DNA of 64,000 nucleotides from Candidatus Udaeobacter sp. (lineage in GTDB: Bacteria > Patescibacteriota > Patescibacteriia > Magasanikbacterales > GWA2-37-8), in assembly GCA_035473115.1 (NCBI GenBank), contig DATION010000002.1, positions 9,469 to 73,468 of the forward strand, given 5' to 3'. The notes under the pieces were generated by a model. It made no database searches. It was not told where the DNA came from and worked only from the letters and a program-made list of their open reading frames with translations. Below, one piece after another: positions 4,500 to 62,977 of the stretch (the first letter of the stretch is position 1; each line of letters opens with the position of its first letter). The translations under genes and the position numbers were made by a program.

Positions 4500-4507
4500 T
4501 TCTGCCA

Positions 4508-4536
4508 ATTGACCGTAAAGCTTTTTTCATATACAA
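4508..4536 (+). promoter_or_regulatory. Putative promoter for dus
   Basis: TTGACC, 17-nt spacer, TACAAT. Confidence 0.4.
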
Positions 4537-4549
4537 TGGTGTATTGATA

Positions 4550-4567
4550 ATATATATATATATATAT
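4550..4567. repeat. (AT)9 dinucleotide microsatellite
   Basis: ATATATATATATATATAT read directly from the sequence. Confidence 0.9.
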
Positions 4568-4636
4568 CTACGGATATATTCTCATTCGTTCGAAAATATT
4601 TTAGTAAACTAAATATTTTGCTCACTCATTTCGATT
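4562..4636 (+). promoter_or_regulatory. Conserved ~75-nt leader element, copy A (abuts the dus ATG)
   Basis: Hairpin ATATATC-TACG-GATATAT, then CTCATTCG box, then CACTCATTTCGATT directly before the ATG. Near-identical to 44712-44790. Confidence 0.5.
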
Positions 4637-8993: not shown

Positions 8994-9034
8994 GCTTCAA
9001 GCGCAGAGTTTAAATTAAATTTAACTTTTAAAGT

Positions 9035-9601
9035 ATGTCGGACGATTCATTGGATAAGTTAATGTATTCCTTTGTAATGGATGACGTCTTAAAAGGGCTT
9101 TTCATTAGTGTTCCTCCGGGGTATGTGGCTTGCGTGTATGATCTGGGCAGAGGAGTGCTGAAAAAAGTTTTAACTCCCGGATTACATTTAAAAATTCCTT
9201 TTTGGCAAAAAGCCAAGTTGTTTAATACTCAAACCTTAGAATATAGCGTTTCCCGCCAGTTTAATCCGGAGCACGAAAAGGCTTTGGGTGATATACCGAT
9301 TGCTGCCGGTACCAAAGATGGCCAGCGCGTGGGGGTAGAAGGCACAATTTTATTGCGTTTAGATGTTCATCAGGTGCCATCTATCTGGCAGACAGTCGGA
9401 GAAGACTTTGTAGCCAAAATTGTGCGTCCAACTATCCGGAGCCGGGTACGCATGGTATTTAGCAAATTTGATTACCAAGACATAGTTGGCGCCAAAAGAG
9501 ATTCCGTAGAAATGGAGCTAAAAAACGAACTGGAAAGGATATTTTATGCTCGAGGAATCTATGTAGAAAATGTTCTACTTAGCGAAATAGCCAAGATTTA
9601 A
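9035..9601 (+). CDS. SPFH/band-7 (prohibitin/HflC-like) domain protein
   Basis: Band-7 core (LHLKIPFWQKAKLFNTQTLEY...) and no obvious TM segment. Confidence 0.6.
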   Translation: MSDDSLDKLMYSFVMDDVLKGLFISVPPGYVACVYDLGRGVLKKVLTPGLHLKIPFWQKAKLFNTQTLEYSVSRQFNPEHEKALGDIPIAAGTKDGQRVGVEGTILLRLDVHQVPSIWQTVGEDFVAKIVRPTIRSRVRMVFSKFDYQDIVGAKRDSVEMELKNELERIFYARGIYVENVLLSEIAKI

Positions 9602-9676: not shown

Positions 9677-9705
9677 TGACAAATACCTCAAAACGTGGTA
9701 GTATG
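9677..9705 (+). promoter_or_regulatory. Promoter for the GC-rich lipoprotein pair
   Basis: TTGACA, 17-nt spacer, TAGTAT with an extended TG. Confidence 0.55.
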
Positions 9706-9766
9706 GCGACTTGAGGCCTAGGAGTTGTTCCAAGAGGCTTCATAACTTGTTTTCGGAGGTTTTCCA

Positions 9767-10099
9767 ATGCAAAGTATCGCGATTCTTATCGCTCTCTGGC
9801 TCATCAGCTGTGTTGGCTGTGGCGCTGCTATTCAGACGCCAAAGGTCAAGAGGGATTTTATCGAGACACCCGGCGTGGTCGCTTTCGAGATCAAGCGTCC
9901 AAACGAGAGTGGTCAGCTCGTTCATCTGATCGGTCGTCGGTTCACTGATCCGGTGACTGTGGTCAGAGGCCCGTGCCATTTTGGCCCAGATTGTTTCACT
10001 TGGCCAGATCCACAGGAAGGAATGCAGACAGTCCAGGTTCTGGACCACTGGGAAGTCATTCTTACAGAAGAAACAACAGTTACAGTCGTCAACAACTGA
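9767..10099 (+). CDS. Small lipoprotein, unknown function (GC-rich island)
   Basis: Signal peptide with lipobox LISC; RBS GGAGG; about 52% GC. Several overlapping ORFs on both strands are GC-induced artefacts. Confidence 0.55.
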   Translation: MQSIAILIALWLISCVGCGAAIQTPKVKRDFIETPGVVAFEIKRPNESGQLVHLIGRRFTDPVTVVRGPCHFGPDCFTWPDPQEGMQTVQVLDHWEVILTEETTVTVVNN

Positions 10100-10132
10100 A
10101 GCTTCGCCAATTCCAGACAAGGAGAGTTTCCA

Positions 10133-10687
10133 ATGAAGTATTACATTATTGTTGCGATCGCTTTCATTGCCTTCGGCTGTGCTTCCACAGTACAGCAACC
10201 TGCGATGAAGAACAACACAGTTCCGATGGTCATGGGTGCGAATGCTCAGGTCGTTCAGCCAGTAACCGGAGCAGCTCCCAGGGCTGGCCAAGAGGTAATG
10301 GACATGGAGTTGGAGTTTCCAAAAACTCCCAAGAATTTGACGATCAAGGAAGTCCAGGCTGAACTCGGGTCATACACGGCGACGACCAATGGTTGCTATC
10401 TCAAGTATGTTCGCGATGTTCGTCGCGCCACATATATGGATCTGGCAATCGTGGTAGGTTGGAACGGTTATCCTGTTTCAATTAATGTAGTTGCTCCCGG
10501 GCTATCAGCTACAACCGAGAAGAAGATCGAGAGCTGTGTGCGGGATGAGATAGGTTCGTTGCTCCACTTTCCCGAGCGCCGTTTCGATACGACTGCGGTA
10601 ATACGGTACGAATTCCAGCATACCTACACAGAAACGCCTGGCGGCGGCCCACAGCTGAGCTGCTACAACCCGAACGGCTGCCACTAG
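10133..10687 (+). CDS. Secreted/lipoprotein, unknown function, Cys-rich C-terminus (GC-rich island)
   Basis: Signal peptide MKYYIIVAIAFIAFGCAS; RBS AGGAGAG; same spacing (tttccaATG) as the preceding gene. Confidence 0.55.
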   Translation: MKYYIIVAIAFIAFGCASTVQQPAMKNNTVPMVMGANAQVVQPVTGAAPRAGQEVMDMELEFPKTPKNLTIKEVQAELGSYTATTNGCYLKYVRDVRRATYMDLAIVVGWNGYPVSINVVAPGLSATTEKKIESCVRDEIGSLLHFPERRFDTTAVIRYEFQHTYTETPGGGPQLSCYNPNGCH

Positions 10688-10784
10688 GCGGCCCAGCAAG
10701 ATGTCGTGGCCGACAATCGTCGGCCCGCGGCTCGAAGAGAAGTCAAGGACTCCACCCGGGGTCCTGTTGTATTTTATAAGGTTC

Positions 10785-42744: not shown

Positions 42745-43464
42745 TTAAAGGCACACATGGTGCACAGTGCAGAAAGCTTTGATATCGGGCGGACCGATGT
42801 ATAATCCGTTTTCGTCCGTGGTGTACCACATCTTTTTGTCGTTCATGATACTCATTCCGTCTTCATATATATGAGGTAGTCCTGTGACGTGTCCCATCTC
42901 ATGAATTACGGTTTGTAGCAGGAGGTGATACATCTTGTTCTGAGCATCATCTGGCATCATCTTTACCGGATGATTTTTGATATAAGATGGAAATATGTCA
43001 ACATGCATTAGCACGTCCCCACCCGGTATGGCGAATCCTGTATTGTTACCATCTCCGGTACTATTGTCTCTTTCGAATTCTATCATCTCACGAGTTGTTT
43101 GCGGTATCTTGTAGACTACCACTCGTCCGTCAGTGAAGGAATTAGTTTTGGACGGGTCAAAGTCTTCGATGTTGATGAAGCCTTCGAAGATAAATACTTT
43201 CTTCCCGTTCCTAATATACGGAGCCATAGCAGTGTTCCACTGCTCGACAGCTCTCTGAATAAGCTCACGAGGGTTTTCTACCCGCATACCGTTGCTATCG
43301 TAAGCTGGATCTCCATTCCAGCTATCCTGAGCATACACATGGATCGGTAAAGATGGTGGCGGGTCTGCTGCGTCAAACATCTCTGTGAGACATCCAGTGG
43401 TGCCAGTAATAGCACCAAAGAATATCACCAGACGAATTACCAACGTCGACATAGCCCTAGCCAT
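42745..43464 (-). CDS. Metzincin-type zinc metalloprotease lipoprotein (GC-rich island)
   Basis: Signal peptide with lipobox TTGC; HEMGHVTGLPH (HExxHxxGxxH) followed by the Met-turn SIM. Confidence 0.65.
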   Translation of the reverse strand: MARAMSTLVIRLVIFFGAITGTTGCLTEMFDAADPPPSLPIHVYAQDSWNGDPAYDSNGMRVENPRELIQRAVEQWNTAMAPYIRNGKKVFIFEGFINIEDFDPSKTNSFTDGRVVVYKIPQTTREMIEFERDNSTGDGNNTGFAIPGGDVLMHVDIFPSYIKNHPVKMMPDDAQNKMYHLLLQTVIHEMGHVTGLPHIYEDGMSIMNDKKMWYTTDENGLYIGPPDIKAFCTVHHVCL

Positions 43465-43982
43465 AGCTGACCTTGTTTTTCTGCTCCCTCAATAAGGGGG
43501 CGGTAAAGGTATCCGAGTTGTTTGATCATTTCTGGGTTAGGAAGGAAAACCTTCCAGCTCGCCATCCCAGTCCATTTGCCAACTGCGACTTCTGCCCCTA
43601 TTCCCAGAGCAAGATCCCAGGAACGAGGCGTGTCTTGGTTGCTCAGATACTTAGAACCGAAATATCTGAAGTACCCGAGACTAACTGGCACTCGCCACCG
43701 TGCACCATGAGCAATGTCAATTGTTAGCTCTCCCAGCCAGCCGTGGTGGTTTAGAGAGGTACTCAATCCGAAGGGCGTATGTTCATTGCGGATCTTAGCA
43801 ACCAGATTCGTGGTTATTGTACGCCACTCTGGCTGTAGGATTGATGTGCCAACACTTGCACCAGCCTGAATCTCAAACCTTCCGGGAAGGTTGAAATCGA
43901 ACCCATCAGCCTTTGCGGTTTGGTTGAAGGTTGAGAGGCCAAGAAATAGCACCCCGACCACTAGAGTAAGTAGTACTTTCAT
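43437..43982 (-). CDS. Secreted beta-rich protein, possibly a small beta-barrel (OmpX/OmpW-like) (GC-rich island)
   Basis: Signal peptide; alternating hydrophobic pattern with an aromatic C-terminus; RBS GGAGG; 28-nt overlap with the downstream metzincin gene. Confidence 0.45.
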   Translation of the reverse strand: MKVLLTLVVGVLFLGLSTFNQTAKADGFDFNLPGRFEIQAGASVGTSILQPEWRTITTNLVAKIRNEHTPFGLSTSLNHHGWLGELTIDIAHGARWRVPVSLGYFRYFGSKYLSNQDTPRSWDLALGIGAEVAVGKWTGMASWKVFLPNPEMIKQLGYLYRPLIEGAEKQGQLWLGLCRRW

Positions 43983-46462: not shown

Positions 46463-49228
46463 ATGGAATTTGAAAAAAACACGCCTTTAAACATCCTTTC
46501 TTGCGACCGTTGTCAAGCAACCGGTTTTATTGGCTTTAGAAAATGCCCGCAATGCAAAGGTATGGCTATGGGAACGATGCAGCGAGACAGGTGGATGTAT
46601 TGGGATTATCCGCTGACTCGTTACCATTTAAACTTGCAGTCCGGTCGTCGTATTTTAAACCGTATTCGTTTAATCACAGCGCTAGTTTTTTGGCTCAATT
46701 GTTGGATCTGGGTTGGATTTCTGGTTTATAAACAAGGAGTTTATAAAATTTTAATAGATCCAAAACATTGGCAAACATTTTTGACTGCTCTCAATCATAG
46801 AACTTTAGTTTTATTTTGGCTGGGCGCGATCGGTTTTTTGTATTTGTGGTATAGAATTATTAAACAAAAAGAATTAGTTGGCGCTGTGGAATCATTTAAC
46901 TATCAAGAAGTTGCAGCAAAGAAAAATAATAATGCGGTGGTTGACTCTTGGATAGCCGTGAAAAAAATATCTAGAAGAAAAAAACATAATATTGCTCATG
47001 CTTTTGTAGAGGAAGCTTTGTCCGCACTTGCTAAAACTTATCATTTTGCCGACAAAAATAAATCCAAAGAAGTCCGGCCAGAGCATCTGTTTTATACCTT
47101 GCTATCATTTAACAGAATCGGCAATATTTTTATCAGACTTGGTATCCCAGCTACTGCTTTGCAAAAAGAATTATTGCCAATGTTTACTAGCGGTATTAAA
47201 GAAAATAAAAATTTACCGCCACTAATAGCAAAAGATCTGCAGCAGATAATCTTTCAAGCTTATGAAGAAGCCTATAAAGCTCACCAAGATTATGTCAGCG
47301 TTACCGATTTGTTAGTAGCTACTCTGCGGGAAACGCCGGCTATTGCCGAAGTTTTATTTAATTTTAATGTTAGCCAGCGCCAGTTGGAAAATGTGGTTGA
47401 GTGGGCCAGGATGCGTGAGAAATTGCATCGCCAGTATGTTAAATTCAGACGCGCAGCCAGTCACCATTCCAAATATGGTATGGATAAAGCCATGACAGCG
47501 CTAGCCACTCCTTATTTAAACAGCTTTAGTTCTGACCTAACTATGTTGGCGCATTATGGCCAGTTAACGCAGTGCGTAGCTAGAAATCAAGAACTAGAAG
47601 AAATTTACCAAATAATTAATGGTGGTGAACATAATGTGTTGCTGGTCGGAGAGCCTGGAGTAGGCAAGCGAACTATTGTTGAAGGCATTGCCCAGAGTAT
47701 GGTTGAAGATGATGTGCCGGAAAGATTAAAAGATAAGCGTTTGGTGCGGTTAAGTGTATCAGCGCTACTGGCTGGCACCAGTCCAACCGGAGCGGTAGAA
47801 AGATTGCGCGGCATAATGCAAGAAATGTCCCGAGCGCGTAATGTTATTTTATTTATTAATAATCTGCATGAACTGGTCGGTGTTTCGGCCGGAGAAAATG
47901 GTAGTCTAGATATAGCCGGTACTTTGGCGGAGTTTCTTAGTAGTGATCGGTTTTTAACCATTGCCACCACTACCCCCGAAGATTATTCTCAGCATATATT
48001 AAATTCTTCTGTTAAAGATGTATTTACCAAAGTAGCTATCGCGGAGATGAATGAAGACCAGGCCATTCAAGTTTTGGAATCTAAAGTGGGTATGTTGGAG
48101 TACAAGCAAAAAATATTTTTTTCTTATGATGCTTTAGAAAAATCTGTTGAGTTCGCGCAAAAGTTTATCCACGAATCATATCTGCCGGTAAATGCTATAG
48201 AAATAATGACTGAAGCGGCCGCGTTTACCCGTAATAAAAAAGGAATCAATTCTATCGTAAGCAAAGAAGAAGTGGCGGCAGTGGTGACCGAAAAAACTAA
48301 AATTCCTTTAGCCACAATTTCTAGCGATGAATCAAGTAAGCTATTGCTCCTAGAAGAAGAGATGCATAAGCGCGTTGTTGGCCAAGATGAAGCCGTAACT
48401 GCCGTGGCTAATGCTTTGCGCCGGGCTCGCGCGCAAATGCGTTCCGCCAAACGGCCGATTGCCAATTTTTTATTTCTTGGGCCTACCGGTGTTGGTAAAA
48501 CCGAACTAACTAAAACAATCGCCGAAGTTTATTTTGGCGGTGAAAATAGGATGATTCGATTGGATATGAGTGAATATCAAGATAAAAATAGTATTTATCG
48601 CTTGATCGGTATGCCCGGAGAAAAAGGTACTGGTATCTTAACCGAAGCAGTGCGGCAAAATCCGTTTTCATTGGTACTTTTGGATGAAATCGAAAAAGCT
48701 GATCAAGATATTCTTAATTTATTCTTACAAGTTATGGATGACGGCCGTTTAACGGATTCTTCTGGCCGGGTATATGACTTTACTAATGTTATTTTGATAG
48801 CTACTTCCAATGCTGGCACGGCTTATGTACAGGAACAAAACAAAAATGGCATTTCTCACGAAGCTTTGCTAAATCAGCTTTTGCATGGCGAACTTAAACA
48901 GTATTTCCATCCGGAATTTTTAAATCGTTTTGATGGCGTTATTTTGTTTAATCCTTTAACCCATGCCGATATCAAAAAAATTGCTGGTATTATGTGTCAG
49001 CAAATTGTTAAAGACATTGAACAAAAAGGGGTAGAATTGCAAGTAACTGATGAAGCTTTGGAATTTTTGGCTGATGTTGGTTTTGATCCGGAGTTCGGAG
49101 CGCGGCCAATGCGCCGGGTTTTACAGGACAAAGTAGAAAACAAATTAGCCGAATTATTCTTGCAGGGCAAATTAAAGAGAGGTAGTGTTATTACTATCGG
49201 AGCCGGTGGAGAGATAAGCGTGGAGTAA
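46463..49228 (+). CDS. Membrane-anchored Clp/Hsp100-family double AAA+ ATPase with N-terminal CxxC zinc ribbon
   Basis: N-terminal CDRCQ...CPQC motif, two TM helices, Clp_N-like repeats, NBD1 GEPGVGKRTIVEGIA, and NBD2 GPTGVGKTELTK with a Walker B motif. Confidence 0.8.
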   Translation: MEFEKNTPLNILSCDRCQATGFIGFRKCPQCKGMAMGTMQRDRWMYWDYPLTRYHLNLQSGRRILNRIRLITALVFWLNCWIWVGFLVYKQGVYKILIDPKHWQTFLTALNHRTLVLFWLGAIGFLYLWYRIIKQKELVGAVESFNYQEVAAKKNNNAVVDSWIAVKKISRRKKHNIAHAFVEEALSALAKTYHFADKNKSKEVRPEHLFYTLLSFNRIGNIFIRLGIPATALQKELLPMFTSGIKENKNLPPLIAKDLQQIIFQAYEEAYKAHQDYVSVTDLLVATLRETPAIAEVLFNFNVSQRQLENVVEWARMREKLHRQYVKFRRAASHHSKYGMDKAMTALATPYLNSFSSDLTMLAHYGQLTQCVARNQELEEIYQIINGGEHNVLLVGEPGVGKRTIVEGIAQSMVEDDVPERLKDKRLVRLSVSALLAGTSPTGAVERLRGIMQEMSRARNVILFINNLHELVGVSAGENGSLDIAGTLAEFLSSDRFLTIATTTPEDYSQHILNSSVKDVFTKVAIAEMNEDQAIQVLESKVGMLEYKQKIFFSYDALEKSVEFAQKFIHESYLPVNAIEIMTEAAAFTRNKKGINSIVSKEEVAAVVTEKTKIPLATISSDESSKLLLLEEEMHKRVVGQDEAVTAVANALRRARAQMRSAKRPIANFLFLGPTGVGKTELTKTIAEVYFGGENRMIRLDMSEYQDKNSIYRLIGMPGEKGTGILTEAVRQNPFSLVLLDEIEKADQDILNLFLQVMDDGRLTDSSGRVYDFTNVILIATSNAGTAYVQEQNKNGISHEALLNQLLHGELKQYFHPEFLNRFDGVILFNPLTHADIKKIAGIMCQQIVKDIEQKGVELQVTDEALEFLADVGFDPEFGARPMRRVLQDKVENKLAELFLQGKLKRGSVITIGAGGEISVE

Positions 49229-49230
49229 TT

Positions 49231-50298
49231 ATGCCGATTATTTTTTTAAAAATATTCATTATAACTTTGGCTCTGGCTGTAGTTTTTACTTTGATTATCA
49301 AAAGTATAGCCATATATTTTCAGGTTTTTGATTTCCCGGATGGAAACAGAAAAACTCATTCCAGACCAATGCCTCTTTTGGGAGGAGTAGCAATTTTTGT
49401 TACCTTTTGGTTGGTAGCTGGGTATCTTTTATTTTCTTACCAAATATATGGCTTGGAATTATTAGCCAAAAAAATGATCGGCGTTTTTCTGGCCAGTTTA
49501 ATTTTGGTGGTAATGGGAGTGATTGACGATAAAAAACAGTTATCTCCAAAATTACGCTTGGTGGTTACTATTTTGGCAGCTTTAGTGGCTATGGGCTGGG
49601 GGTTAGGTTTAGAAAAAATTACCAATCCTTTGGGTGGAATTTTAAATTTAAGTTTTTGGCCGATAAAAGTCGGTGGCGGAACCTTTTATTTACTGGCGGA
49701 AATTTTGGTTTTTATTTGGCTAATGGGCATGATGTATACCACCAAAGTTTTAGATGGGTTAGACGGATTATCTGTTGGCACTGCTTTTATCGGCGGAGTT
49801 ATAATATTTTTTTTATCTACTTCCGCCAAATATTTCCAGCCTAACGTAGCTATTTTAGCGCTTATTTTCGCCGCCAGCTGTTTGGGTTTTCTGTTATTTA
49901 ATTTTTATCCTGCCAAAATTTTTTTGGGCGAAGGTGGCAGCCTGTTTATTGGTTTGATATTAGGGGTTTTGGCTATAATTTCTGGTGGGAAAGTGGCCAC
50001 AGCTCTACTGGTCATGGCCATTCCGATTTTGGACTTAGCACGAGTGGTCTATATTAGAATCAAAAATAATCAGTCCGTGTTTAAAGGTGATAGAGAACAT
50101 CTTCATTTTCGTTTGCTAGATTCAGGGTTAAGCCATAGGCGCACAGTTTTATTTCTATATTTTTTGGCTTTTTTATTTGGTATTACCACTTTATTTTTAC
50201 AAAGCACGCAAAAATTATATGCGCTTTTAGTCTTGGTAATTTTGTTAGCTTTTATTAATTATCGTTTGGGAAAAAAAGGTAGCAATTTTCGCATATGA
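49231..50298 (+). CDS. MraY/WecA family polyprenyl-phosphate N-acetylhexosamine-1-phosphate transferase
   Basis: GT4 (MraY/WecA) membrane topology with DDxxD-like and VLDGLDGL motifs. Confidence 0.8.
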   Translation: MPIIFLKIFIITLALAVVFTLIIKSIAIYFQVFDFPDGNRKTHSRPMPLLGGVAIFVTFWLVAGYLLFSYQIYGLELLAKKMIGVFLASLILVVMGVIDDKKQLSPKLRLVVTILAALVAMGWGLGLEKITNPLGGILNLSFWPIKVGGGTFYLLAEILVFIWLMGMMYTTKVLDGLDGLSVGTAFIGGVIIFFLSTSAKYFQPNVAILALIFAASCLGFLLFNFYPAKIFLGEGGSLFIGLILGVLAIISGGKVATALLVMAIPILDLARVVYIRIKNNQSVFKGDREHLHFRLLDSGLSHRRTVLFLYFLAFLFGITTLFLQSTQKLYALLVLVILLAFINYRLGKKGSNFRI

Positions 50299-50762
50299 CA
50301 CAACCAAAACCATTTAAATTTTGGCATTTAATTTTTTTATTAGTAGTCTTTATATTTTTTATTGGCAACGCCATTTATAGTTCTTGGTGGAAAAAAGCAG
50401 TTGTAAAAATTGGCGGTCAGGAAGTGCGTGTTTTGGTAGCTGATAATTATAAACATCAAGTAAAAGGCTGGAGCGGCCGAAAAGATATGGGCCAGTATGG
50501 CGGCATGTTATTTATTTTTGCCGATCACGGTCAGCATGCTATGGTTATGCGCGATATGCAATTTCCCTTAGATATTGTTTGGCTAGATGGCAATAAAATT
50601 ATCGATTTTGCGCCAAACTTGCCTGCAGAAGCGGGGATTGCCGAAGACAAATTAACTATATATCGGAGCCGAGCGGCTTCTACTATGGTTCTAGAACTGC
50701 CAGCTGGGTTTATGGAGAAAAATGGCTTAAAAATAGGGGATACAATCCAGGTGCAAGGATAA
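50295..50762 (+). CDS. DUF192 domain protein
   Basis: N-terminal TM and a DUF192 core (MQFPLDIVWLD). Confidence 0.6.
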   Translation: MTQPKPFKFWHLIFLLVVFIFFIGNAIYSSWWKKAVVKIGGQEVRVLVADNYKHQVKGWSGRKDMGQYGGMLFIFADHGQHAMVMRDMQFPLDIVWLDGNKIIDFAPNLPAEAGIAEDKLTIYRSRAASTMVLELPAGFMEKNGLKIGDTIQVQG

Positions 50763-50775
50763 AATATAGCGGCCA

Positions 50776-50804
50776 TTGACATATTTTAAGCCTTAGTATA
50801 TACT
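50776..50804 (+). promoter_or_regulatory. Promoter for rplU
   Basis: TTGACA, 17-nt spacer, TATACT. Confidence 0.55.
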
Positions 50805-50843
50805 AATCGCACCCCGTACAAATTATTTAATTTTAAGTTTTTT

Positions 50844-51149
50844 ATGTATTCAGTCATAGCTACCGGCGGAAAACAGTATCTAGTTAAGAGCGGCGATGTT
50901 TTAAAAATAGAAAAATTACCTGTAGCCGAAGGCGGTAAAGTTGTTTTTGATAAAGTATTACTCACTGCTAACGAAGATGGTACTGATGTAAAAATTGGTA
51001 AACCTTATTTGGCTGGCGCTACTGTCGAAGCCACTCTGGAAAAGCAAGGAAAAGAACGCACTTTACGTGTAGAAAAGTTCAAAAATAAAGTTCGTTACCA
51101 CAAAGTTCATGGTCAAAGACAGAGATTCAGCCAAGTAAAGATTAAATAA
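50844..51149 (+). CDS. rplU: 50S ribosomal protein L21
   Basis: MYSVIATGGKQYLV... L21 family. Confidence 0.9.
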   Translation: MYSVIATGGKQYLVKSGDVLKIEKLPVAEGGKVVFDKVLLTANEDGTDVKIGKPYLAGATVEATLEKQGKERTLRVEKFKNKVRYHKVHGQRQRFSQVKIK

Positions 51150-51167
51150 AATTAAAACTTCAAAACT

Positions 51168-51203
51168 AACCCCGCCTTTCACGAAAGGCGGGGTTTTGGT
51201 TTA
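51168..51203 (+). terminator. Intrinsic terminator after rplU
   Basis: CCCCGCCTTTC-acg-GAAAGGCGGGG followed by TTTTGGTTT. Confidence 0.75.
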
Positions 51204-51214
51204 TTGTAAGGGGA

Positions 51215-51243
51215 TTGACAAATGGTGATTTTTGTGGTATATT
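51215..51243 (+). promoter_or_regulatory. Promoter for the GC-rich gene 51406..52275
   Basis: TTGACA, 17-nt spacer, TATATT with an extended TG. Confidence 0.55.
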
Positions 51244-51405
51244 ATTCTGTTACTTAATTAGAGTAACAATTTCTTTACAATTCAATTACAGGCGGTTTCT
51301 CTCTGTTTTAGAGGTCTTTAATTTGGGTCTCAAAAACAGGGAGAAATCCCGCTTCTTATCGGCAGTCCTGTTTCAGGACTGCTAACCACCGTTTCAAGAG
51401 GAGAG

Positions 51406-52275
51406 TTGAACATGATGAACTATCGGAATTCCTTGCAGTCGACCAGTGCCAATGGCCCGTTTATTGTCCTGGATCATTTCAGGATGACCAAGAAGCAAGT
51501 TGCCGAATTCCATCGGCGACTCCCCGGAGTGACCGAGGAGACGGTCCGCCAGGCGATCGAGCAGTACAACTTCTTCCTCGCCGAGGGTGGTAACGTCAGG
51601 CGCCCCTGGTTGCATGATGGTCAGAGCCGGATTGTCGCACCAATGTGCAGCGAAGCGGTGGACTTGCTCCAGCGTAAGTTCCCCAGGACCGTTGCGTCGT
51701 CCAATTGGTGTGGAGGATGGCCACGACAGCAGCAGCGCCAGGACCGTAAGGAGTACGGCCGGTACTACGAGCCGGGAGTCCGTGTGCTCATTGCTGCCAA
51801 GCGATCTCGTGTCGCGGTGGAGAAAGCACCAGTGACGACCTCGTCCCTGTCGATGGATTACGATGATGACTTTCCCGATCAGCGTGCATATGATAGAGCC
51901 TTCCGTGATCCTGATGACGATGACTATGGCCATGATGGAGACGGTGGCTTCTACGGAGATGGAGATGGTGATGGTTCGGACAACGAACCAAACCATGACA
52001 CCGACTCGGAGAATGCGACCAAGAAGATGTATGCCGCGACCCCTGTTGTGTTCAAACGATTCGGCGATCAGAAAACGATCGTTCTCGTCATCTCCAATGG
52101 TGATCGGAAGCGTGCCGAGATCTTCGAGATCAACGGGAGTGTTGTCACCACCCACAAGACCTCGCGTGCTCAGAAGTACACCGACGCTGAGCTCAAGGCC
52201 AAGGGATGGCAGCACGGCAATCTCGGTGACGAACGTTTCAAGCCGATTTTGGCGGTCATCCTGACCGCCAACTAG
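51406..52275 (+). CDS. Hypothetical bipartite protein with D/G-rich acidic linker (about 58% GC, foreign)
   Basis: RBS GAGGAG; N-terminal domain of about 130 aa, a DGDG/DDDD low-complexity linker, and a C-terminal domain of about 90 aa. The antisense 297-aa ORF is a GC artefact. Confidence 0.6.
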   Translation: MNMMNYRNSLQSTSANGPFIVLDHFRMTKKQVAEFHRRLPGVTEETVRQAIEQYNFFLAEGGNVRRPWLHDGQSRIVAPMCSEAVDLLQRKFPRTVASSNWCGGWPRQQQRQDRKEYGRYYEPGVRVLIAAKRSRVAVEKAPVTTSSLSMDYDDDFPDQRAYDRAFRDPDDDDYGHDGDGGFYGDGDGDGSDNEPNHDTDSENATKKMYAATPVVFKRFGDQKTIVLVISNGDRKRAEIFEINGSVVTTHKTSRAQKYTDAELKAKGWQHGNLGDERFKPILAVILTAN

Positions 52276-52404
52276 AAGGAGTCTCACTACCGTGAACTGA
52301 GCGTCAGTTCGCGGTACAGGCGCCCTCAGGAATATTTCTCCAGAGTCTGCGCTTCTTGCGCCAAATCATTTGGCCCCAGAAGCGCTCTGGAGAAATCCAA
52401 AACT

Positions 52405-52438
52405 AAAAACACCTTGTACATTTGTACGAGGTGTTTTT
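52405..52438. terminator. Bidirectional terminator (recR / GC-rich gene)
   Basis: ACACCTTGTAC-attt-GTACGAGGTGT flanked by A-runs and T-runs. Confidence 0.7.
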
Positions 52439-52439
52439 G

Positions 52440-53042
52440 TTATCTCTCAGTTCTATTCTTTAAAGCGCTGCCCAAAGTTATTTCATCAGCGTATTGCAAG
52501 TCACTGCCCATAGGCAAGCCGCGAGCCAGACGAGTAATTTTTAAATCCGGTTTTTCTTGTTTAATTTTTCTTTCCAAAAATAACATAGTAGTTTCGCCGG
52601 CCAAGTCGGGGTTGAGAGCCAAAACTATCTCTTTTATTTTTGTTTCTTTTTTTATTTTAAGAAATAATTCTTTAAGTTTTATTTTTTCCAGATCTTCTTC
52701 CGCACCTGGTTCAATTGTACCGCGCAACACGTGGTATAAGCCATTATATATACCGGTTCGTTCCAAAACCGGTATATCTTGCGGTTCACTGATTATGCAT
52801 AATAAAGATTGATCTCTGCTTTTATTACCGCAAATAGTGCAAGGGTTTTGGTCGCTAAAATCCCAGCAGTTTTCACAGCTTTTGACATTATCAATCAGTT
52901 CTTTTAAAGCCAAAGTAATCTCTCCAACTTCTTTTTTTCCTGATTTTAGCAGATAAAAAACAAACCGTTCAGCTGTTCTTTGACCGACAGTTGGCAGTTT
53001 ACGAAAAGCTTGAATGAGATTTTGAATTGATTTGGAGTACAT
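52440..53042 (-). CDS. recR: Recombination protein RecR
   Basis: HhH motif, C4 zinc finger (CENCWDF...CTIC), and Toprim domain. Confidence 0.9.
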   Translation of the reverse strand: MYSKSIQNLIQAFRKLPTVGQRTAERFVFYLLKSGKKEVGEITLALKELIDNVKSCENCWDFSDQNPCTICGNKSRDQSLLCIISEPQDIPVLERTGIYNGLYHVLRGTIEPGAEEDLEKIKLKELFLKIKKETKIKEIVLALNPDLAGETTMLFLERKIKQEKPDLKITRLARGLPMGSDLQYADEITLGSALKNRTER

Positions 53043-53049
53043 TTTTAAA

Positions 53050-53343
53050 TTAATTCATTCCCGGGAATCCGCCCATCTCCTGCATTTTGCTGGCCATTAT
53101 TTTTTGCATTTTTTTGGTAGCGTCGCTGTGGGCGTCTTTAATAGCATTTTGTAACTTTTCTTTTTTTGTCGGGCTTAGCATTTCTTCATCAATGGCTACA
53201 CCAGTTAATTGCAAATTTCCATCCATAGTCAAAGCCACACCATTGTTGTGACTAGTAACAGATTCTCCGGCCAAAGCCCCCTGTAGTTTTTTCCCCTGAT
53301 CTCTTAAATCTTTAAATTGTTTTAGCTTTGAAAATACGGACAT
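53050..53343 (-). CDS. ybaB: Nucleoid-associated protein YbaB/EbfC
   Basis: YbaB family size and motif, with the conserved recR neighbourhood. Confidence 0.85.
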   Translation of the reverse strand: MSVFSKLKQFKDLRDQGKKLQGALAGESVTSHNNGVALTMDGNLQLTGVAIDEEMLSPTKKEKLQNAIKDAHSDATKKMQKIMASKMQEMGGFPGMN

Positions 53344-53369
53344 ATAGTTTATTAATTAATAATTTATAA

Positions 53370-54809
53370 TTACATTGGTGGTAAGTTTGAGTTATTTTTT
53401 TGCATAAACGCTGATTTTGGTTTAAGAGCCGGAGCAGCTGCAGAACGTTCTATGTACTGAGTCGTTAAATTCCGGAAAGATGCTCGTTCGGCATCAAAAA
53501 TCATGCGAGCCATGCCGGTTGGACCGTTACGATGTTTAGCGATATGGATTTCAGCAATATTTTTTTCATCGGGAGAAATATCTTCGGGGCGATAATTACG
53601 GTCGGCTGATTTTCTGTAAATAAATAATACCACATCCGCATCTTGCTCAATAGATCCGGATTCACGCAAGTGAGAAAGTTTAGGTATGGCTGGCGTGCTT
53701 GCTTCCACGGTACGAGAAAGCTGAGAAAGAGCCAAAACCGGGATATTTAATTCGCGAGCGATACTTTTTAGGCCACGAGTTATTTCGGCAACTTCTTGCA
53801 CACGGTTTTCTATGCTGCCACGTGATTCCATCAGCTGCAAGTAGTCTATAACTATCAGCCCCAAGCCATGTTCCATTTGCAAACGCCGCGCTTTGGTGCG
53901 GATCTGCATTATATTATTATTCGAGGCGTCATCAATAAAAATTGGCGCTTCCGAAAGTACCCCTAAAGCATGTCCAATTTTAGGAAAATCTTCTTCACCC
54001 AGATTACCCGTGCGCATTTTCCATAAATCCACATTGGCTTCAGAACAAAGTAAACGATCAACGAGTTGTTCTTTACTCATTTCCAGAGAAAACATACCCA
54101 CTGGTATTTTTTGTTTACCGCCGATATGACGCACGATATCTAAAGCTAAAGAAGTTTTTCCTACACTGGGGCGGGCAGCTAAAATTATTAAATCAGATCT
54201 TTGTAAGCCAGCTAGTGATTTATCTAGATCTGGATAACCGGTAGGAACTCCGCGTAATTGTCCTTTGTTATTATGCAGTTCGTCAATTCTATCAAAAGCT
54301 TCGTTTAATACTCCACGAATAGGAGTAAAAGTTTGGCGCATGAAGTTTTGAGATACACCAAATAGTTGTCTTTGCGCGTTATCAAGTAAAGAATCAAGCT
54401 CTTCGGTTTCTTCATAGCCCATTTTAGAAATTTCATGAGCTGCCGAAAGTAGTCGGCGCCGAGTCGCTTTTTTATGGACAATGTTGGCATAATTAACTAC
54501 ATGCGAAGCGGTTGGAACGGTGTTGGTAAGAGAAACTAGATAGCTATAACCGCCAGCTTGGTCTAAGTGTCCTTTTTCTGTTAGGCGGTTGCTGAGAGTG
54601 AGTAAGTCGATCGGTTCATTTTTTTGGTAAAGTTCCAAAATTACTTCAAAAATTTGGGCATGCGCGTTTTTATAAAAATCTTCCGGCTGCACAATATCGG
54701 CAATTTTTAACATCGCGTCTTTATCCAGCAAAATAGAGCCCAAAAGTGACATCTCAGCTTCTATGCTTTGCGGTGGAATTTTTTCTAGTTCTTTTATATC
54801 TTGAGGCAC
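53370..54809 (-). CDS. dnaB: Replicative DNA helicase DnaB
   Basis: N-terminal domain plus a RecA-like domain (Walker A GKTS, LIVIDYLQLM). Confidence 0.95.
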   Translation of the reverse strand: MPQDIKELEKIPPQSIEAEMSLLGSILLDKDAMLKIADIVQPEDFYKNAHAQIFEVILELYQKNEPIDLLTLSNRLTEKGHLDQAGGYSYLVSLTNTVPTASHVVNYANIVHKKATRRRLLSAAHEISKMGYEETEELDSLLDNAQRQLFGVSQNFMRQTFTPIRGVLNEAFDRIDELHNNKGQLRGVPTGYPDLDKSLAGLQRSDLIILAARPSVGKTSLALDIVRHIGGKQKIPVGMFSLEMSKEQLVDRLLCSEANVDLWKMRTGNLGEEDFPKIGHALGVLSEAPIFIDDASNNNIMQIRTKARRLQMEHGLGLIVIDYLQLMESRGSIENRVQEVAEITRGLKSIARELNIPVLALSQLSRTVEASTPAIPKLSHLRESGSIEQDADVVLFIYRKSADRNYRPEDISPDEKNIAEIHIAKHRNGPTGMARMIFDAERASFRNLTTQYIERSAAAPALKPKSAFMQKNNSNLPPM

Positions 54810-54919
54810 AAATTAAGCAAAAATTTGAATATTTTCTAAGTTCACAGATAGTTCGTATATCTTAATCTAAGGGTTTATTTTTGGCAAGAAAAGTAAGGGG
54901 ACGAAATGTGGGCAAAGAG

Positions 54920-54948
54920 TTGATATTTAAAAGAAGTAAAGTTATAAT
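54920..54948 (+). promoter_or_regulatory. Near-consensus promoter directing an apparently leaderless mRNA
   Basis: TTGATA, 17-nt spacer, TATAAT; the ATG at 54959 lies 10 nt after the -10 element. Confidence 0.55.
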
Positions 54949-54958
54949 TATAAACGTT

Positions 54959-57106
54959 ATGTTTTATCAGTTTTTTTACAGTAAAATAGCACCAACTGTA
55001 GCTCTATCAGCTTTAGGGTATTTATTTTTTAGTGTTTGGCATAGCTGGATTTTTGGATCAATAGTTTTAGTTTTATATTTCTTGTTTGTTTCTGCCGGAA
55101 CTCAAAAAGTACTTATAAATTATTTTGATTTTGTAAAATCTTTCCAAACCAGAGTTTTAGCTATTTTTTTTAGTTTAGTTACCTTTGGTTGGTTTTTGGG
55201 ATTCTTTATTTTTTTAAATTATTTTAATGGCTTATCCGTATTTTTAGCCTTTTTTCTTAACGCTTTAGTTTGGTCTTTGGTTAAAGCCAATAATATTACC
55301 AGCTTGGAAAATAAAATAGAGGATAAAGATGAAATTTCGCCCCTATCTTGGTATGAAAAAGTTGGTGTTTTGTTTTATTTTTTGTTAATTATTTACGGAT
55401 TTTATCTTTTAATAAAATCCAAAACCGGCGGCGCTATTTATTCTCCCTGGCAAGCGATTGACTCAAGTTATGTTTGGGTTTTTTTGTTAGTTATTTTTTT
55501 ATCTGGAATGCTGATTTTGTTTTCTAAATTTTCGTTAAAAATTTTATTGTTTTTTGTCATAGCTAATTCATTTTTGCTGCATAGCTATCTGCCTTTGACT
55601 CATGAATTATTTTATGGCGCCGATGGTTGGCGGCACATGGCCACGGAACAAAGATTAATGGATGGCAAACAATTTTTACAAGTCGAGCTTGCAGGTTCAA
55701 ATAATCGGGCCAGTCGTCAGTCATTGATTTCTAATTTACAAGCAAAGGTCGGTGTTTTGTCTTATGCCAATTTTTGGGGTACAAATGTAATTATAGGAAA
55801 AATATTGCAAGTTAATTTGATTTCCTTAACCAAATGGTTTTTACCAATACTCTGGTCTATAATTTTTACAATTTTGCTGTACGAAATTGGCTTGGCTCTA
55901 GGTTGGTCTGCAAAAAATTCTTTGCTTTTAGCTTGGGGCGGTATGTGGCCGTTTGCGTTGCAAGCAGGCGGATCTTTTTCTCTGCCCGTTAATTTTGGTT
56001 TTTTGATTTTTATTTTATTTGTCCTTTTATTTTTAAAAAAGTTTCGCCAGCCTAACATTAAACAGAAAAATATTTTATTAGCATTAGGTTTTGGTTCAGC
56101 ATTTGGTTATCTATTATTTTTTATTCTCTATTGGTTAGGCTGGGGGATAACAGCTATATTAAAGAACGGTAAAAAAATAATTATTATTCCCGGTTTAATT
56201 TTTGCGTCCGCAGCCCTGCCAATTTTAGAATTAGCAGGAAAATTTAGTTTTATTGATCGTAAAATAAATATTTTAACGCAAATAAAACAGTTTGTCGGTA
56301 ATATTTTTGCTGTTTATTTAGCCAGCGGACCTAGGCCGCACGATATTGCTGGCGGTAATATTTTATTTAATCAAGTAACTTTATCAATTTTTACGCCAAA
56401 TTTTCTGACGCAATTTAGATGGTGGCTGCCAGTTTTGGTTTTAGCAACTTTTATTATTGTTATCTTAGGAGTAAAGAAAAATTTAAAAGATTTAAACTAT
56501 CAATTTATTTTGGCTTTTGCGACAGTTTTGTTTGTCGGTTATTTTTTATCTTTTTATTTACTAACCGGAGAGCATCTGTTTTCTCGCCGGCTTGATACGG
56601 TTTTGGCTTGTCTGTTTTTAATTTTACTTTTTTACGGATTAAGTAATTTTTTTGATAAAAAATATATTGCTGGCTTGACTGTAATAGTTTTATCACTGGC
56701 TATTACCGCTTCCTATACTCTTGGTCCAGATACTTTTACTGTAAAATCAAATGAGTTGGAGGCTATGAATTATGTTTGGTCCAAAGAGGAGATTTATAAT
56801 ACCCACTGTGTTTTAGCTGATGTATATCCATTACTGGCTTTAGAAGCTGTTTCTAAAAAAGAAATTGTCGGCGGCGGGTTTCCCATAGACGCTAATTTTG
56901 CTCAACCCGAAAGAGTAAAGTTGTATGAACAGATGAAATTGACTATCAATGATAATTTATTAAGAACCACAGCGACTTTAACAAAAACTGATCATTGCTG
57001 GTTGGTCGGAGAAACCGGAAATTTTTACCGACAAGGCGTTTTAAATTATGGAGATTATAAAATATTTGGTGATGTCGCTGCGGTACGATATAATACAAAA
57101 TATTAA
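54959..57106 (+). CDS. Large polytopic membrane protein (possible GT-C-like glycosyltransferase/polymerase), function unknown
   Basis: More than 12 TM helices. Start moved to the ATG after the promoter; the ORF-track start 54881 would include the promoter. Confidence 0.55.
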   Translation: MFYQFFYSKIAPTVALSALGYLFFSVWHSWIFGSIVLVLYFLFVSAGTQKVLINYFDFVKSFQTRVLAIFFSLVTFGWFLGFFIFLNYFNGLSVFLAFFLNALVWSLVKANNITSLENKIEDKDEISPLSWYEKVGVLFYFLLIIYGFYLLIKSKTGGAIYSPWQAIDSSYVWVFLLVIFLSGMLILFSKFSLKILLFFVIANSFLLHSYLPLTHELFYGADGWRHMATEQRLMDGKQFLQVELAGSNNRASRQSLISNLQAKVGVLSYANFWGTNVIIGKILQVNLISLTKWFLPILWSIIFTILLYEIGLALGWSAKNSLLLAWGGMWPFALQAGGSFSLPVNFGFLIFILFVLLFLKKFRQPNIKQKNILLALGFGSAFGYLLFFILYWLGWGITAILKNGKKIIIIPGLIFASAALPILELAGKFSFIDRKINILTQIKQFVGNIFAVYLASGPRPHDIAGGNILFNQVTLSIFTPNFLTQFRWWLPVLVLATFIIVILGVKKNLKDLNYQFILAFATVLFVGYFLSFYLLTGEHLFSRRLDTVLACLFLILLFYGLSNFFDKKYIAGLTVIVLSLAITASYTLGPDTFTVKSNELEAMNYVWSKEEIYNTHCVLADVYPLLALEAVSKKEIVGGGFPIDANFAQPERVKLYEQMKLTINDNLLRTTATLTKTDHCWLVGETGNFYRQGVLNYGDYKIFGDVAAVRYNTKY

Positions 57107-61391: not shown

Positions 61392-62471
61392 ATGAAAAAT
61401 AGTCTTAAGAAAAATTCCAAGGAAAAAATTTTAGTTGCCATGAGCGGCGGAGTAGATTCTTCAGTTGCTGCTGCTCTTTTAGTTGCTCAAGGCCACGATG
61501 TTACCGGCGCTTTTATGGTAAATTATGACGAAATTGGCCCAAGCGGAGAATCTTGCTGGGCCGGAGATTACCAAGACGCGCTACGTGTAGCTGCTAAATT
61601 AAACATACCGCTATTGCGTTGGGATTTTGTTAAAGAGTACAAAAAAACCGTTTTGGATTACATGTATGCCGAATATGAAAAAGGCAGAACGCCCAATCCG
61701 GATGTTTTGTGCAATAAGTTTGTGAAGTTTGGCTCTTGGTTAGACAAAGCCAGAGAGTTAGGTTTTACCAAACTGGCTACGGGCCATTATGCGCAAACTA
61801 AAAAAATAAAAAATTCCACAAAATTAATAAAAGCTAAAGATGATAATAAAGACCAAACATATTTTTTGCATCAGCTTAGTCAAGACCAGCTAAAAGATAT
61901 TTTATTTCCCATTGGCGGTTATACAAAGCCGGAAGTGAGAAAACTGGCTAAAAAGTTTGGTTTGCCAAACGCGGACAAAGAAGAAAGTATGGGTATCTGT
62001 TTTATCGGTGAAGTGCCGATGAAAGATTTTTTGTTAAAAAAAATTAAATCCCAAAAAGGAAAAATAGTTCTAAGTACCGGCCAAATCATTGGCGAGCATG
62101 ATGGTTTATCTTTTTATACTATTGGTCAAAGAAATTTGGGTGTAAAAACAGATCAAAATAAACCTCTATATGTGCTTGATAAGAGTTTTGTCAAAAATGA
62201 ATTAGTTGTTGGTTATGAAGATGATCCTTTGTTATATAAAAAAGAGACAGAAATTACAGATGTAAATTGGATAAACGGACAAAAGCCAAAGCTGCCTTTA
62301 ACTTGTGAAGTTCGTTTACGCCATAGACAGCCGTTGCAGAAAGTAAAAGTGGAAGAAAAAAATGGTAAAGTATTTTTAAAATTTTCTAAAGCACAGCGTG
62401 CTGTAACCCCTGGGCAATTTGCAGTACTCTATGCAAAAAATGAATGCTTAGGTGGGGGAATCGTTAAATAA
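61392..62471 (+). CDS. mnmA: tRNA-specific 2-thiouridylase MnmA
   Basis: PP-loop SGGVDSSV with the catalytic Cys region. Confidence 0.9.
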   Translation: MKNSLKKNSKEKILVAMSGGVDSSVAAALLVAQGHDVTGAFMVNYDEIGPSGESCWAGDYQDALRVAAKLNIPLLRWDFVKEYKKTVLDYMYAEYEKGRTPNPDVLCNKFVKFGSWLDKARELGFTKLATGHYAQTKKIKNSTKLIKAKDDNKDQTYFLHQLSQDQLKDILFPIGGYTKPEVRKLAKKFGLPNADKEESMGICFIGEVPMKDFLLKKIKSQKGKIVLSTGQIIGEHDGLSFYTIGQRNLGVKTDQNKPLYVLDKSFVKNELVVGYEDDPLLYKKETEITDVNWINGQKPKLPLTCEVRLRHRQPLQKVKVEEKNGKVFLKFSKAQRAVTPGQFAVLYAKNECLGGGIVK

Positions 62472-62977
62472 AATTAAAAAGACCCGCCTAACAGCTCTAC
62501 CGCTCTTGTACGCCTCACATAAGCGCGAACGGTCTGTCTGTTGGCAGGTCGTAGGTCGGGTGGGCGGCTCTGCGCCCCGGTTTTGTTTTCTTGTGCTTGG
62601 TAGGCTCTTTGTGCTGCACAGCACATTGAGCTTTCTAGCCTAGAGGACAGCTAGATGGGGTTCACTAACCCCATGTGTCTGGAATGACTCGCTCCTTCTT
62701 GCCAATTGCCATCATTTTTCCAGCCACCTTGCACTAGTTTTTTCTCCTTATTATTTTTTGTTTAGCTGGTTTTCGGGCCCATGTTTCCGGTGCGCTCTCT
62801 GGCGCCTTTTTCCGCTTTGGACCCTTTGTGATTGTCGGCTTCCATTCGGTGCCGACCTCAACCGGCGTATGGGGCTTTACTTAGGCCACCGATTACGCAT
62901 TCAGATAGTAGTACTTCTCTTGAATTTTGTCAAGAATAATGTTAAATTATTCACAGTTTAAATTATTAAATATCGTT

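Follow-up and report, generated by a model that had tools for sequence, protein, structure and literature searches.

A GC-rich accessory gene framed by conserved RNA hairpins between rplU and recR in a Magasanikbacteria-type genome

In a 64,000-nt stretch of bacterial DNA (contig DATION010000002.1 of assembly GCA_035473115.1, positions 9,469 to 73,468 of the forward strand; this whole stretch is called the window here), a single gene that is rich in guanine and cytosine (GC) lies between rplU, the gene for ribosomal protein L21, and recR. This gene, open reading frame (ORF) X with its product protein X, is the coding part of a compact transcription unit, or cassette, which consists of a promoter, a leader with three hairpins, the ORF, a long bulged hairpin behind it and a terminator. 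Homologous units were found in ten other assemblies. The hairpins of the unit act at the RNA level, protein X belongs to a new two-domain family and is encoded by a real coding gene, and conservation is inverted, in that the non-coding flanks are better conserved than the protein. The explanation that we favor, which we put forward tentatively as possible rather than probable, is a self-contained accessory transcription unit in which the hairpins of the untranslated regions (UTRs) are elements of RNA stability, processing or recognition and the product is a fast-evolving basic protein. The locus provides two new RNA motifs, the three-hairpin leader and the near-invariant bulged 3′ hairpin, neither of which is in Rfam. 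It also provides a new two-domain protein family, found only in Magasanikbacteria-like genomes, a lineage without cultured representatives. Full-text literature searches returned nothing on this locus.

Conserved RNA structure of the unit

L-numbered labels (L001 and so on) denote related or homologous loci from other assemblies that were compared with the window. Ten homologous loci were read (L081, L086–L092, L099 and L100), which together with the window represent 11 independent assemblies. An assembly chimera was rejected because the same mosaic of AT-rich and GC-rich segments recurs in all 11. The coordinates of the parts of the unit and of its neighbors are given in Table 1.

An initial annotation of this DNA, made from the sequence alone, had named the promoter (TTGACA-17-TATATT), three leader hairpins, a GAGGAG Shine-Dalgarno (SD) sequence in a structured leader, and the terminator of rplU. 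All of these are present, and the promoter additionally has a TG before its −10 element. The 3′ half of the unit, i.e., the hairpin at 52331–52399 and the terminator at 52404–52439, was not in that annotation. The layout of the promoter, TTGACA-17-TATAnT with the T-run and the TG, is found in all 10 homologous loci having upstream sequence. The transcription start is a prediction from the position of the −10 element, and it would place the first hairpin (HP1) at the 5′ end of the transcript.

The structured leader of about 162 nt has a minimum free energy (MFE) of −59.8 kcal/mol, with a z-score of −6.3 against shuffled sequences, and the folding z-scores range from −3.7 to −6.3 among seven long leaders. 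In an alignment of seven leader sequences, 96.5% of the cells are paired and eight pairs are changed on both sides. The covariation score was reached by none of 500 shuffles, and pairing fell to 47–59% when the partners were slid by 1–3 columns. HP1 has 7 pairs, which are 100% paired in the 7 sequences and include one GC/CG swap. HP2 has 22 pairs (95.5% paired, 7 changed on both sides; slid controls, 47–59% paired). At the position of HP3, a hairpin was present in all nine of the leaders folded, with sequences unrelated to one another. The structure of the leader is conserved with compensatory changes, and the ORF that follows it is conserved as well. The observations that the initial annotation had named as its refutation (no conserved leader structure in homologues, and an ORF that is not conserved or has no coding signal) were therefore not made.

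The 3′ hairpin has a mean column identity of 86% (alignment A5). Its three helices are 100% paired, and its G·U pairs are on the + strand; on the other strand, they would be C·A mismatches. The covariance models distinguish the strands in the same manner: the model of the 3′ hairpin (R1) scores 83.5 bits on the + strand vs. 47.9 bits on the − strand, and the model of the leader (R2) scores 89 bits vs. 23 bits. The covariation of pairs, the G·U pairs and the strand-specific model scores together demonstrate that the hairpins act as RNA. Both models match only the cassettes: the window gives a single match, and loci without the gene give none. The near-invariance of the 3′ hairpin and its GUCU bulge suggest that it may be recognized by a protein or by another RNA. 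The pattern of this hairpin had no match in IMG/VR; in the JGI metagenomes, the sole true match was the L081 contig, and five others were chance matches in GC-rich coding DNA. Both long hairpins, HP2 and the 3′ hairpin, have a stem base of the form UCUCC...GGAGA. We rejected the idea that they are one motif, because R1 does not match HP2 and only this short stem base is common to them.

The initial annotation had proposed that the leader is a riboswitch or thermosensor. The leader does resemble the cis-regulatory leaders and riboswitches of Rfam: it is a 5′ UTR whose structure is conserved ahead of a single gene, it is long, strongly structured and covarying, and it has a conserved single-stranded segment and a conserved internal loop. 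Nevertheless, we consider it very unlikely that it acts as a sensor (riboswitch, RNA thermometer or other) through which translation or transcription of the gene is gated. At gathering score, a cmscan search of the window and six related loci against Rfam detected only tRNAs and no family in the leader, and a permissive scan of the window gave only sub-threshold matches to microRNA-like hairpins and nothing in the ORF. The consensus fold consists of three independent hairpins, with no multi-helix junction and no alternative of terminator and anti-terminator. The SD sequence has an unpaired probability of 0.53 in the window and of 0.23–0.73 across the homologues, and no conserved partner helix that would sequester it was found among the homologous leaders. 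Furthermore, the gene persists in L090 and L091, although HP1 and HP3 are the only leader hairpins there. A role of the leader in processing or stability, which the initial annotation had also mentioned, remains plausible.

In several of the homologous leaders, a six-codon mini-ORF overlaps the 5′ arm of HP2 and stops at the conserved UAG of the internal loop (L081, 7846–7866; also L086, L088, L089 and L100; L087, 4414–4434). It has no clear SD sequence and encodes MRFLLL or MCFLLL in the L081 group and MISLCF in L087, each followed by the stop codon. It is absent from the window and from L099, so we rejected it as a conserved feature; it is probably incidental.

Table 1. Parts of the transcription unit and its neighboring genes in the window
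Feature	Position	Strand	Description
Sigma-70-type promoter	51215–51243	+	TTGACA 51215–51220, 17-nt spacer with T-run, TG (extended −10), TATATT 51238–51243; 11/12 consensus matches
HP1	51249–51267	+	7-bp hairpin at predicted transcript 5′ end; MFE folds
A/U-rich single-stranded linker	51268–51293	+	UU..UU.ACAA...AA; invariant columns (alignments A3, A6); unpaired in folds
HP2	~51294–51349	+	~22 bp, conserved internal A-A mismatch, ends in GGAGAAATCC; inverted repeat I1
HP3	51361–51383	+	10-bp hairpin; structure kept, sequence differs by lineage
SD sequence GAGGAG	51398–51403	+	8 nt before ATG; read from sequence
ORF X	51412–52275	+	287 aa; N-domain aa 21–137 (nt 51472–51822), linker aa 138–197 (51823–52002), C-domain aa 198–287 (52003–52272)
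Small hairpin after stop codon	52288–52316	+	Inverted repeat I7; not conserved, 40–52% identical to L087
Bulged 3′ hairpin	52331–52399	+	~25 bp, 4-nt bulge GUCU; inverted repeats I2, I8; near-invariant sequence in family
Bidirectional intrinsic terminator	52404–52439	both	A-run, 16-bp stem, T-run; common to cassette and convergent recR; conserved in alignment A4
rplU (ribosomal protein L21)	50844–51149	+	Upstream neighbor; Pfam Ribosomal_L21p, E 4.8e-30
rplU intrinsic terminator	51168–51205	+	Terminator scan (51168–51195); 12-bp stem, 7 GC pairs, then T-rich tail; separates rplU from cassette
recR	52440–53042	−	Convergent downstream neighbor; Pfam RecR_HhH, RecR_ZnF, Toprim_4, RecR_C; stop codon at 52440

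Homologues, distribution of the unit and the protein family

A word-indexed search of 5.8 billion proteins returned only protein X itself. With phmmer, eight homologues were found among 1.84 billion representative proteins (E-values of 3e-42 to 7e-4), each of which matched in two stretches, and a profile search added two further homologues, giving a total of 10. None of the homologues among these 1.84 billion representatives lies outside the cassette context, and tblastn searches of phage and plasmid collections gave no match to protein X. The earlier statement that the product matches no recognized family holds for Pfam, NCBIfam, PHROGs, PADLOC and the PDB sequences, in which no family was matched by more than one of the 11 members and all E-values exceeded 0.005; with its 10 homologues, however, protein X is not an orphan.

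The homology of the unit begins at the −35 element and ends at the T-run of the terminator. Besides the window, eight loci have the long leader (HP1, A/U-rich linker, HP2, HP3 and SD sequence), and L090 and L091 keep the gene, the promoter, HP1 and HP3 in a short leader without HP2. The bulged 3′ hairpin is present in six loci besides the window, in which the terminator then follows wherever the contig reaches that far; L090, L091 and L099 have a plain terminator without this hairpin. The unit occupies the rplU/recR site in five loci (the window, L087, L090, L091 and L099). In L081, L086 and L100, a DUF6938 gene precedes it; tRNA genes follow in the first two of these, and a tRNA gene also follows it in L089. 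We conclude that it is a rare single-gene unit and a patchily distributed accessory locus of Magasanikbacteria-type bacteria of the Candidate Phyla Radiation (CPR). Two details of individual loci can be added. In L081, the DNA right after the terminator (8880–9200) contains a promoter-like site, a tRNA gene (9028–9099) and a partial near-repeat of the 3′ half of that tRNA (about 9130–9190). In L099, a 36-codon frame runs from the ATG proximal to the SD sequence (285) to about 393, and the called gene (361–960) begins at a TTG at 361 in another frame; the N-terminal region is unrelated to the family. This could reflect a frameshift, an error of the assembly or a genuine exchange of the domain.

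The occurrence of the unit in at least two genomic contexts (rplU/recR and DUF6938/tRNA), its sharp limits, the stem base common to its two long hairpins and the variability of the rplU/recR spacer among relatives would fit a mobile DNA cassette with hairpin ends as recombination sites, in the manner of IS200/IS605-type elements, PATE-like elements or integron attC sites. We regard this as most improbable. There is a single copy in the 64 kb, and other loci that lack the gene have none; no transposase or integrase gene adjoins the unit in the window or in the other loci read, and there is no transposase gene in the unit itself. There is no target-site duplication: a repeat in the window, CAAAACTAA (D1), was considered as one and rejected because it is not reproduced in L087. 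Judged by eye, neither end of the 3′ hairpin has an attC-type core site (GTTRRRY/RYYYAAC); the unit also has a promoter of its own and no integrase among its neighbors. The G·U pairs and the strand asymmetry favor RNA over DNA hairpins, and the limits of the unit coincide with the promoter and the terminator. In its compactness, its own promoter and terminator, its deviant composition, its patchiness and its position between convergent housekeeping genes, the cassette is similar to the phage “morons,” which are autonomous promoter–gene–terminator units inserted between genes. It differs from them in that it is chromosomal, has no phage genes nearby and no match in phage, IMG/VR or plasmid data, and has UTRs that are conserved across lineages.

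The ORF had been described as 289 aa long with about 58% GC. It is indeed GC-rich, but its GC content is 56% and its length is 287 aa from the ATG at 51412. This ATG, which stands 8 nt after the SD sequence and agrees with the NCBI record, is almost certainly the start; a spacing of only 2 nt separates the TTG at 51406 from the SD sequence. GC at the first, second and third codon positions is 0.59, 0.42 and 0.67, which is a coding pattern for the plus strand. Across the 11 members of the family, the conserved motifs are GGKRPxLHD and RIIAPVCPE with an Arg-rich helix in the N-domain, and GWKxGKLGD in the C-domain. In the AlphaFold 2 (AF2) model, which was made from the 11-sequence alignment, the predicted local distance difference test (pLDDT) score is 85–95 in both domains and < 50 in the linker, in agreement with the initial annotation, which had described two globular parts and an acidic D/G/Y linker. 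The N-domain (21–137) is modeled as helices, a small beta-hairpin and two basic helices, and the C-domain (198–287) as a helix, five strands and a helix. The linker (aa 138–197) is an insertion unique to the allele of the window and is predicted to be disordered. The structure check suggested at the outset yielded two domains but no known fold, as Foldseek searches of the PDB and BFVD gave nothing significant for the AF2 model. The isoelectric points of the family are 9.4–10.5, and that of the window allele is 6.7, solely through the acidic linker. A basic, Arg-rich, two-domain protein of this kind would be compatible with nucleic-acid binding. The sequence of protein X shows no evident signal peptide or membrane-spanning segment, and the protein is probably cytoplasmic.

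We also considered whether the product might be something other than protein X, either a GC-rich structured non-coding RNA or a full-length antisense ORF (51394–52287, 297 aa). GC-rich islands in AT-rich genomes often mark structured RNAs, and the in-phase antisense frame is free of stops in eight of nine loci, for which the chance is 0.045 in the window and 0.012 in L087, given their own third-position composition. This alternative is scarcely credible: the sense frame has the coding pattern of GC across codon positions, an SD sequence with an ATG, amino-acid motifs that are conserved at 23% identity and a confidently predicted fold, and there were no Rfam matches in the ORF. The antisense ORF was rejected as a by-product of A-poor third positions, and in L091 it has two stops. 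A-ending codons are strongly avoided also in the alleles of lower GC content: in L087 and the window, third positions have 0.10–0.12 A vs. 0.24–0.37 T, which is an asymmetry between the strands.

Evolution of the framed segment and possible roles of the unit

The coding segment evolves rapidly and as a mosaic between conserved flanks. The GC content at third codon positions (GC3) of the ORF is 0.51 in L087, 0.67 in the window, 0.76–0.80 in L091 and L090, and 0.95–0.98 in L081, L086, L088, L089 and L092; the DNA around the homologues has 35–47% GC where it is measurable. The GC-rich zone extends from the end of HP2 to the 3′ hairpin and includes the non-coding HP3 and the first part of the 3′ UTR, and the block from the promoter to HP2 has 29–39% GC. 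The proteins are 23–65% identical across the family vs. 75–95% for the UTRs. In the high-GC3 group, the UTR blocks are 82–98% identical and the proteins only 41–65%. Between the window and L087, DNA identity is 80–90% in the neighboring genes, 72–80% in the leader and 92–98% in the 3′ hairpin vs. 47% in the ORF overall and 40–55% in its N-domain and linker; the neighboring proteins are 84–93% identical, except for DUF192 (71%).

The initial annotation had called the gene a clear horizontal acquisition, and several features would agree with recent transfer from a high-GC donor: the ORF has 56% GC in a 39% GC window, some of the homologues have an actinobacterium-like GC3 of 0.95–0.98, and the unit is patchy among relatives, in which the spacer is empty (40–190 bp) or holds other cargo. 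The remaining evidence does not bear out this claim, and we judge such a transfer decidedly unlikely. Every GC-rich allele sits within the same AT-rich promoter and UTRs, which is not expected from such a donor, and five genomes have the unit at one and the same site. Neither the 1.84 billion representative proteins nor the phage, plasmid and IMG/VR collections yielded a homologue outside the cassette. In addition, the alleles have diverged to 41–65% identity and yet retain about 97% GC3 beside conserved UTRs. Ordinary transfer followed by drift toward the composition of the host does not explain the sharp, maintained boundary between the UTRs (about 30% GC) and an ORF with a GC3 of up to 98%. 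Most synonymous differences are exchanges between G and C, which means that the high GC3 is being maintained and is no relic.

The groupings of the two domains conflict with each other. L086 and L081 are 0.59 identical in the N-domain and 0.29 in the C-domain, L086 and L100 are 0.42 and 0.48 identical, respectively, and in L099 an unrelated N-domain is joined to a C-domain with 64% identity to the one in L090. Along the ORF, DNA identity changes in blocks. These two observations indicate recombination inside ORF X. A recombination-driven hypervariable locus could account for the pattern: homology arms or boundary elements would be provided upstream by the promoter and leader and downstream by the 3′ hairpin and terminator, alleles would be swapped by gene conversion or allelic replacement, and GC-biased heteroduplex repair would raise GC and speed protein change. 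This account is unlikely in our assessment; it is compatible with the explanation that we favor, because it concerns composition and evolution and not molecular function. In its support, the valley of divergence has the start codon and the 3′ hairpin as its limits, and the GC-rich zone includes non-coding parts, so that selection on codons alone is insufficient. The mosaic identity of the ORF with its conflicting domain groupings and the G/C exchanges that maintain a high GC3 equilibrium also agree with it, as does a nonsynonymous rate (dN) about equal to the synonymous rate (dS). Gene conversion with a GC bias produces a semblance of positive selection and a local rise in GC3, as in mouse Fxy, and the vls locus of Borrelia is far more GC-rich than its genome. 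Against it, the 64-kb window and the other loci read yielded no silent cassettes or paralogues, and no second copy of any part of the island was found in the window. To our knowledge, strong GC-biased conversion has not been established in bacteria. The locus is a compact natural test case for a process that is debated in bacteria if it was shaped by localized recombination or biased gene conversion; if selection on the message or an arms race is the cause, it points to an unknown interaction in CPR biology.

Borrelia vlsE and Neisseria pilE are the expression sites of antigenic variation by gene conversion. The unit is similar to them in having conserved flanks around a hypervariable mosaic coding segment, and to vlsE in particular in a GC content far above that of the genome and a long inverted repeat near the promoter. 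The differences are that no silent donor cassettes were seen in the 64-kb window or the other loci, that the product has no apparent signal peptide and is probably cytoplasmic, and that the variation observed is between genomes. A diversity-generating retroelement is not indicated either: the window has no template repeat (no search was aimed at a reverse transcriptase), and the variation spans the whole ORF and not about 130 bp.

Under the explanation that we favor, the near-consensus, extended −10 promoter would start a message that opens with the terminal hairpin HP1 and continues through the A/U-rich single strand, HP2, HP3 and a largely exposed SD sequence into the coding region of the basic two-domain protein. 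The message would close with the near-invariant bulged hairpin and the bidirectional terminator in common with recR. The hairpins would most likely protect the message from decay and would probably also be sites at which a protein recognizes or processes the message. This protein could be protein X, which would then regulate its own expression, or an RNase that is specific for double strands, e.g., RNase III. The hairpins appear not to sense a metabolite or temperature. The outcome would be autonomous, high and buffered expression. The stretch from HP2 to the 3′ hairpin, which recombines, evolves rapidly and stays GC-rich in every lineage, would fit a product under diversifying or arms-race pressure.

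Two types of known systems are comparable with this mechanism. In the 5′ UTR of Escherichia coli ompA and the leaders of Bacillus subtilis aprE and ermC, a 5′-terminal stem-loop stabilizes the mRNA. The unit resembles them in its hairpin at, or a few nucleotides from, the predicted 5′ end of the transcript, its exposed SD sequence and its stable 3′ hairpin with a terminator, which are the features expected of a stabilized autonomous message, and by analogy such a message is plausible here. It differs from these stabilizers in its two additional conserved hairpins, the conserved single-stranded linker and the bulged 3′ hairpin of invariant sequence, and there is no sequence relationship. The second type is the gene-flanking hairpins that are processed by RNase III, as in the early mRNAs of phage T7, the N leader and sib of lambda, and the stems of rRNA precursors. 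The mismatched or bulged stems of 22–25 bp that flank the coding region here are, as far as their sequence tells, long enough to be substrates. In contrast to such hairpins, the 3′ hairpin is more invariant in sequence than RNase III normally needs, and some homologues lack the stems.

Several points weigh against the favored explanation. The transcription start and any processing are predictions, and HP2 and the 3′ hairpin are dispensable for the gene: neither is present in L090 and L091, and L099 has no 3′ hairpin. A stability model leaves a GC3 of 95–98% beside UTRs of about 30% GC unexplained. Protein X has no detectable similarity to any RNA- or DNA-binding family, and the Sm/Lsm-like Foldseek matches of its C-domain are weak (probability ≤ 0.3, E ≥ 0.5) and provide a lead only. 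With NG86, dN/dS is 0.75–1.4 in the high-GC3 group vs. 0.03–0.07 for L21, RecR and YbaB, but the pinning of synonymous sites to G/C probably inflates the value of the ORF, which therefore does not prove positive selection on ORF X.

A more far-reaching version, which we regard as unlikely, is that the unit is a dedicated hypervariable expression locus of CPR bacteria. Two long RNA/DNA hairpins with the UCUCC...GGAGA base would bracket a cassette that is continually reshuffled by recombination. Either biased gene conversion or selection that favors a message resistant to nucleases would drive the cassette to an extreme GC content (GC3 up to 98% in genomes of 35–47% GC). The product would be a new nucleic-acid-binding protein in an arms race, e.g., with phages or with the host cell of the episymbionts. 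If true, this would be the first such locus described in CPR bacteria and an unusually clean bacterial case of localized GC drive.

The rplU/recR spacer and other features of the window

In the window, the interval from rplU to recR is about 1.29 kb, and 300-nt windows within it reach a GC content of 0.51–0.61, compared with a mean of 38.9% (0.389) in the window as a whole; the terminator of the unit abuts the stop codon of recR. The gene had been interpreted as inserted where rpmA, the gene for ribosomal protein L27, is expected. It is correct that rpmA is absent from the window, as no tblastn match to the L27 of E. coli or B. subtilis was found anywhere in it and ORF X has no Pfam Ribosomal_L27 match, but rpmA was not displaced by ORF X. 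Related loci were collected by a scan with the L21 of the window, with one genome per species, and the ten closest (L21 60–83% identical; 83% in the closest Magasanikbacteria-like genome found) are mostly labeled Magasanikbacteria or Patescibacteria. All ten have the same gene order, i.e., ClpB, MraY-like, DUF192 and rplU, then recR, ybaB and dnaB on the opposite strand. In none of the ten does rpmA follow rplU, and the convergence of rplU and recR in all of them is the arrangement of the clade. The inference of a missing rpmA was therefore wrong.

The comparison of the region downstream of rplU in relatives, which the initial annotation had proposed, revealed a variable spacer. It measures 40–190 bp in six of the ten related loci (L002–L004 and L008–L010) and holds other cargo in three (L001, L006 and L005, the last about 400 bp). 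In L001, the closest relative found, the spacer encodes a 270-aa signal-peptide protein (4427–5239) with its own TTGACA-17-TATAGT promoter and host-like composition, whose sole Pfam signal is a weak hint of Calx-beta. The cargo of L006 has two parts. About 200 nt of GC-rich, strongly hairpinned DNA (4380–4620, + strand), which include a terminator and a promoter-like site and have no Rfam match, may be a small RNA; the other part is a GC-rich, membrane-like ORF of 202 aa (4702–5310, − strand) with no Pfam match. The absence of rpmA after rplU, together with the varied content of the spacer, identifies the site as a variable spot between convergent genes and not a vacated rpmA slot, and the different cargo in L001 shows that the spacer behaves as a hot spot for accessory genes. 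The gene-free spacers of L008 (4340–4450) and L009 (4385–4475) carry very long near-perfect hairpins, longer than terminators need.

The public record labels the DNA of the window (e.g., 46463–57106; proteins HSR88899–HSR88901) as “Candidatus Udaeobacter sp.” (Verrucomicrobiota). The GC content of 39%, the gene order and the closest relatives, which mostly have Magasanikbacteria or Patescibacteria labels, disagree with this label, and the taxonomic label or the underlying binning appears to be wrong.

Other GC-rich segments were also observed in the window. A second island at 9678–10760, with up to 0.60 GC in 200-nt windows and its own TTGACA promoter-like site, contains two consecutive small ORFs with lipoprotein-type signal sequences (9767–10099, 110 aa; 10133–10687, 184 aa). 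It has no Pfam match and no frame of hairpins like that of the rplU/recR cassette. Two patches exceed 50% GC: one at 43201–43851 overlaps two minus-strand ORFs, one of which has a weak hint of Peptidase_M10, and the other, at 62401–62901, directly follows a tRNA methyltransferase (MnmA-like) gene.

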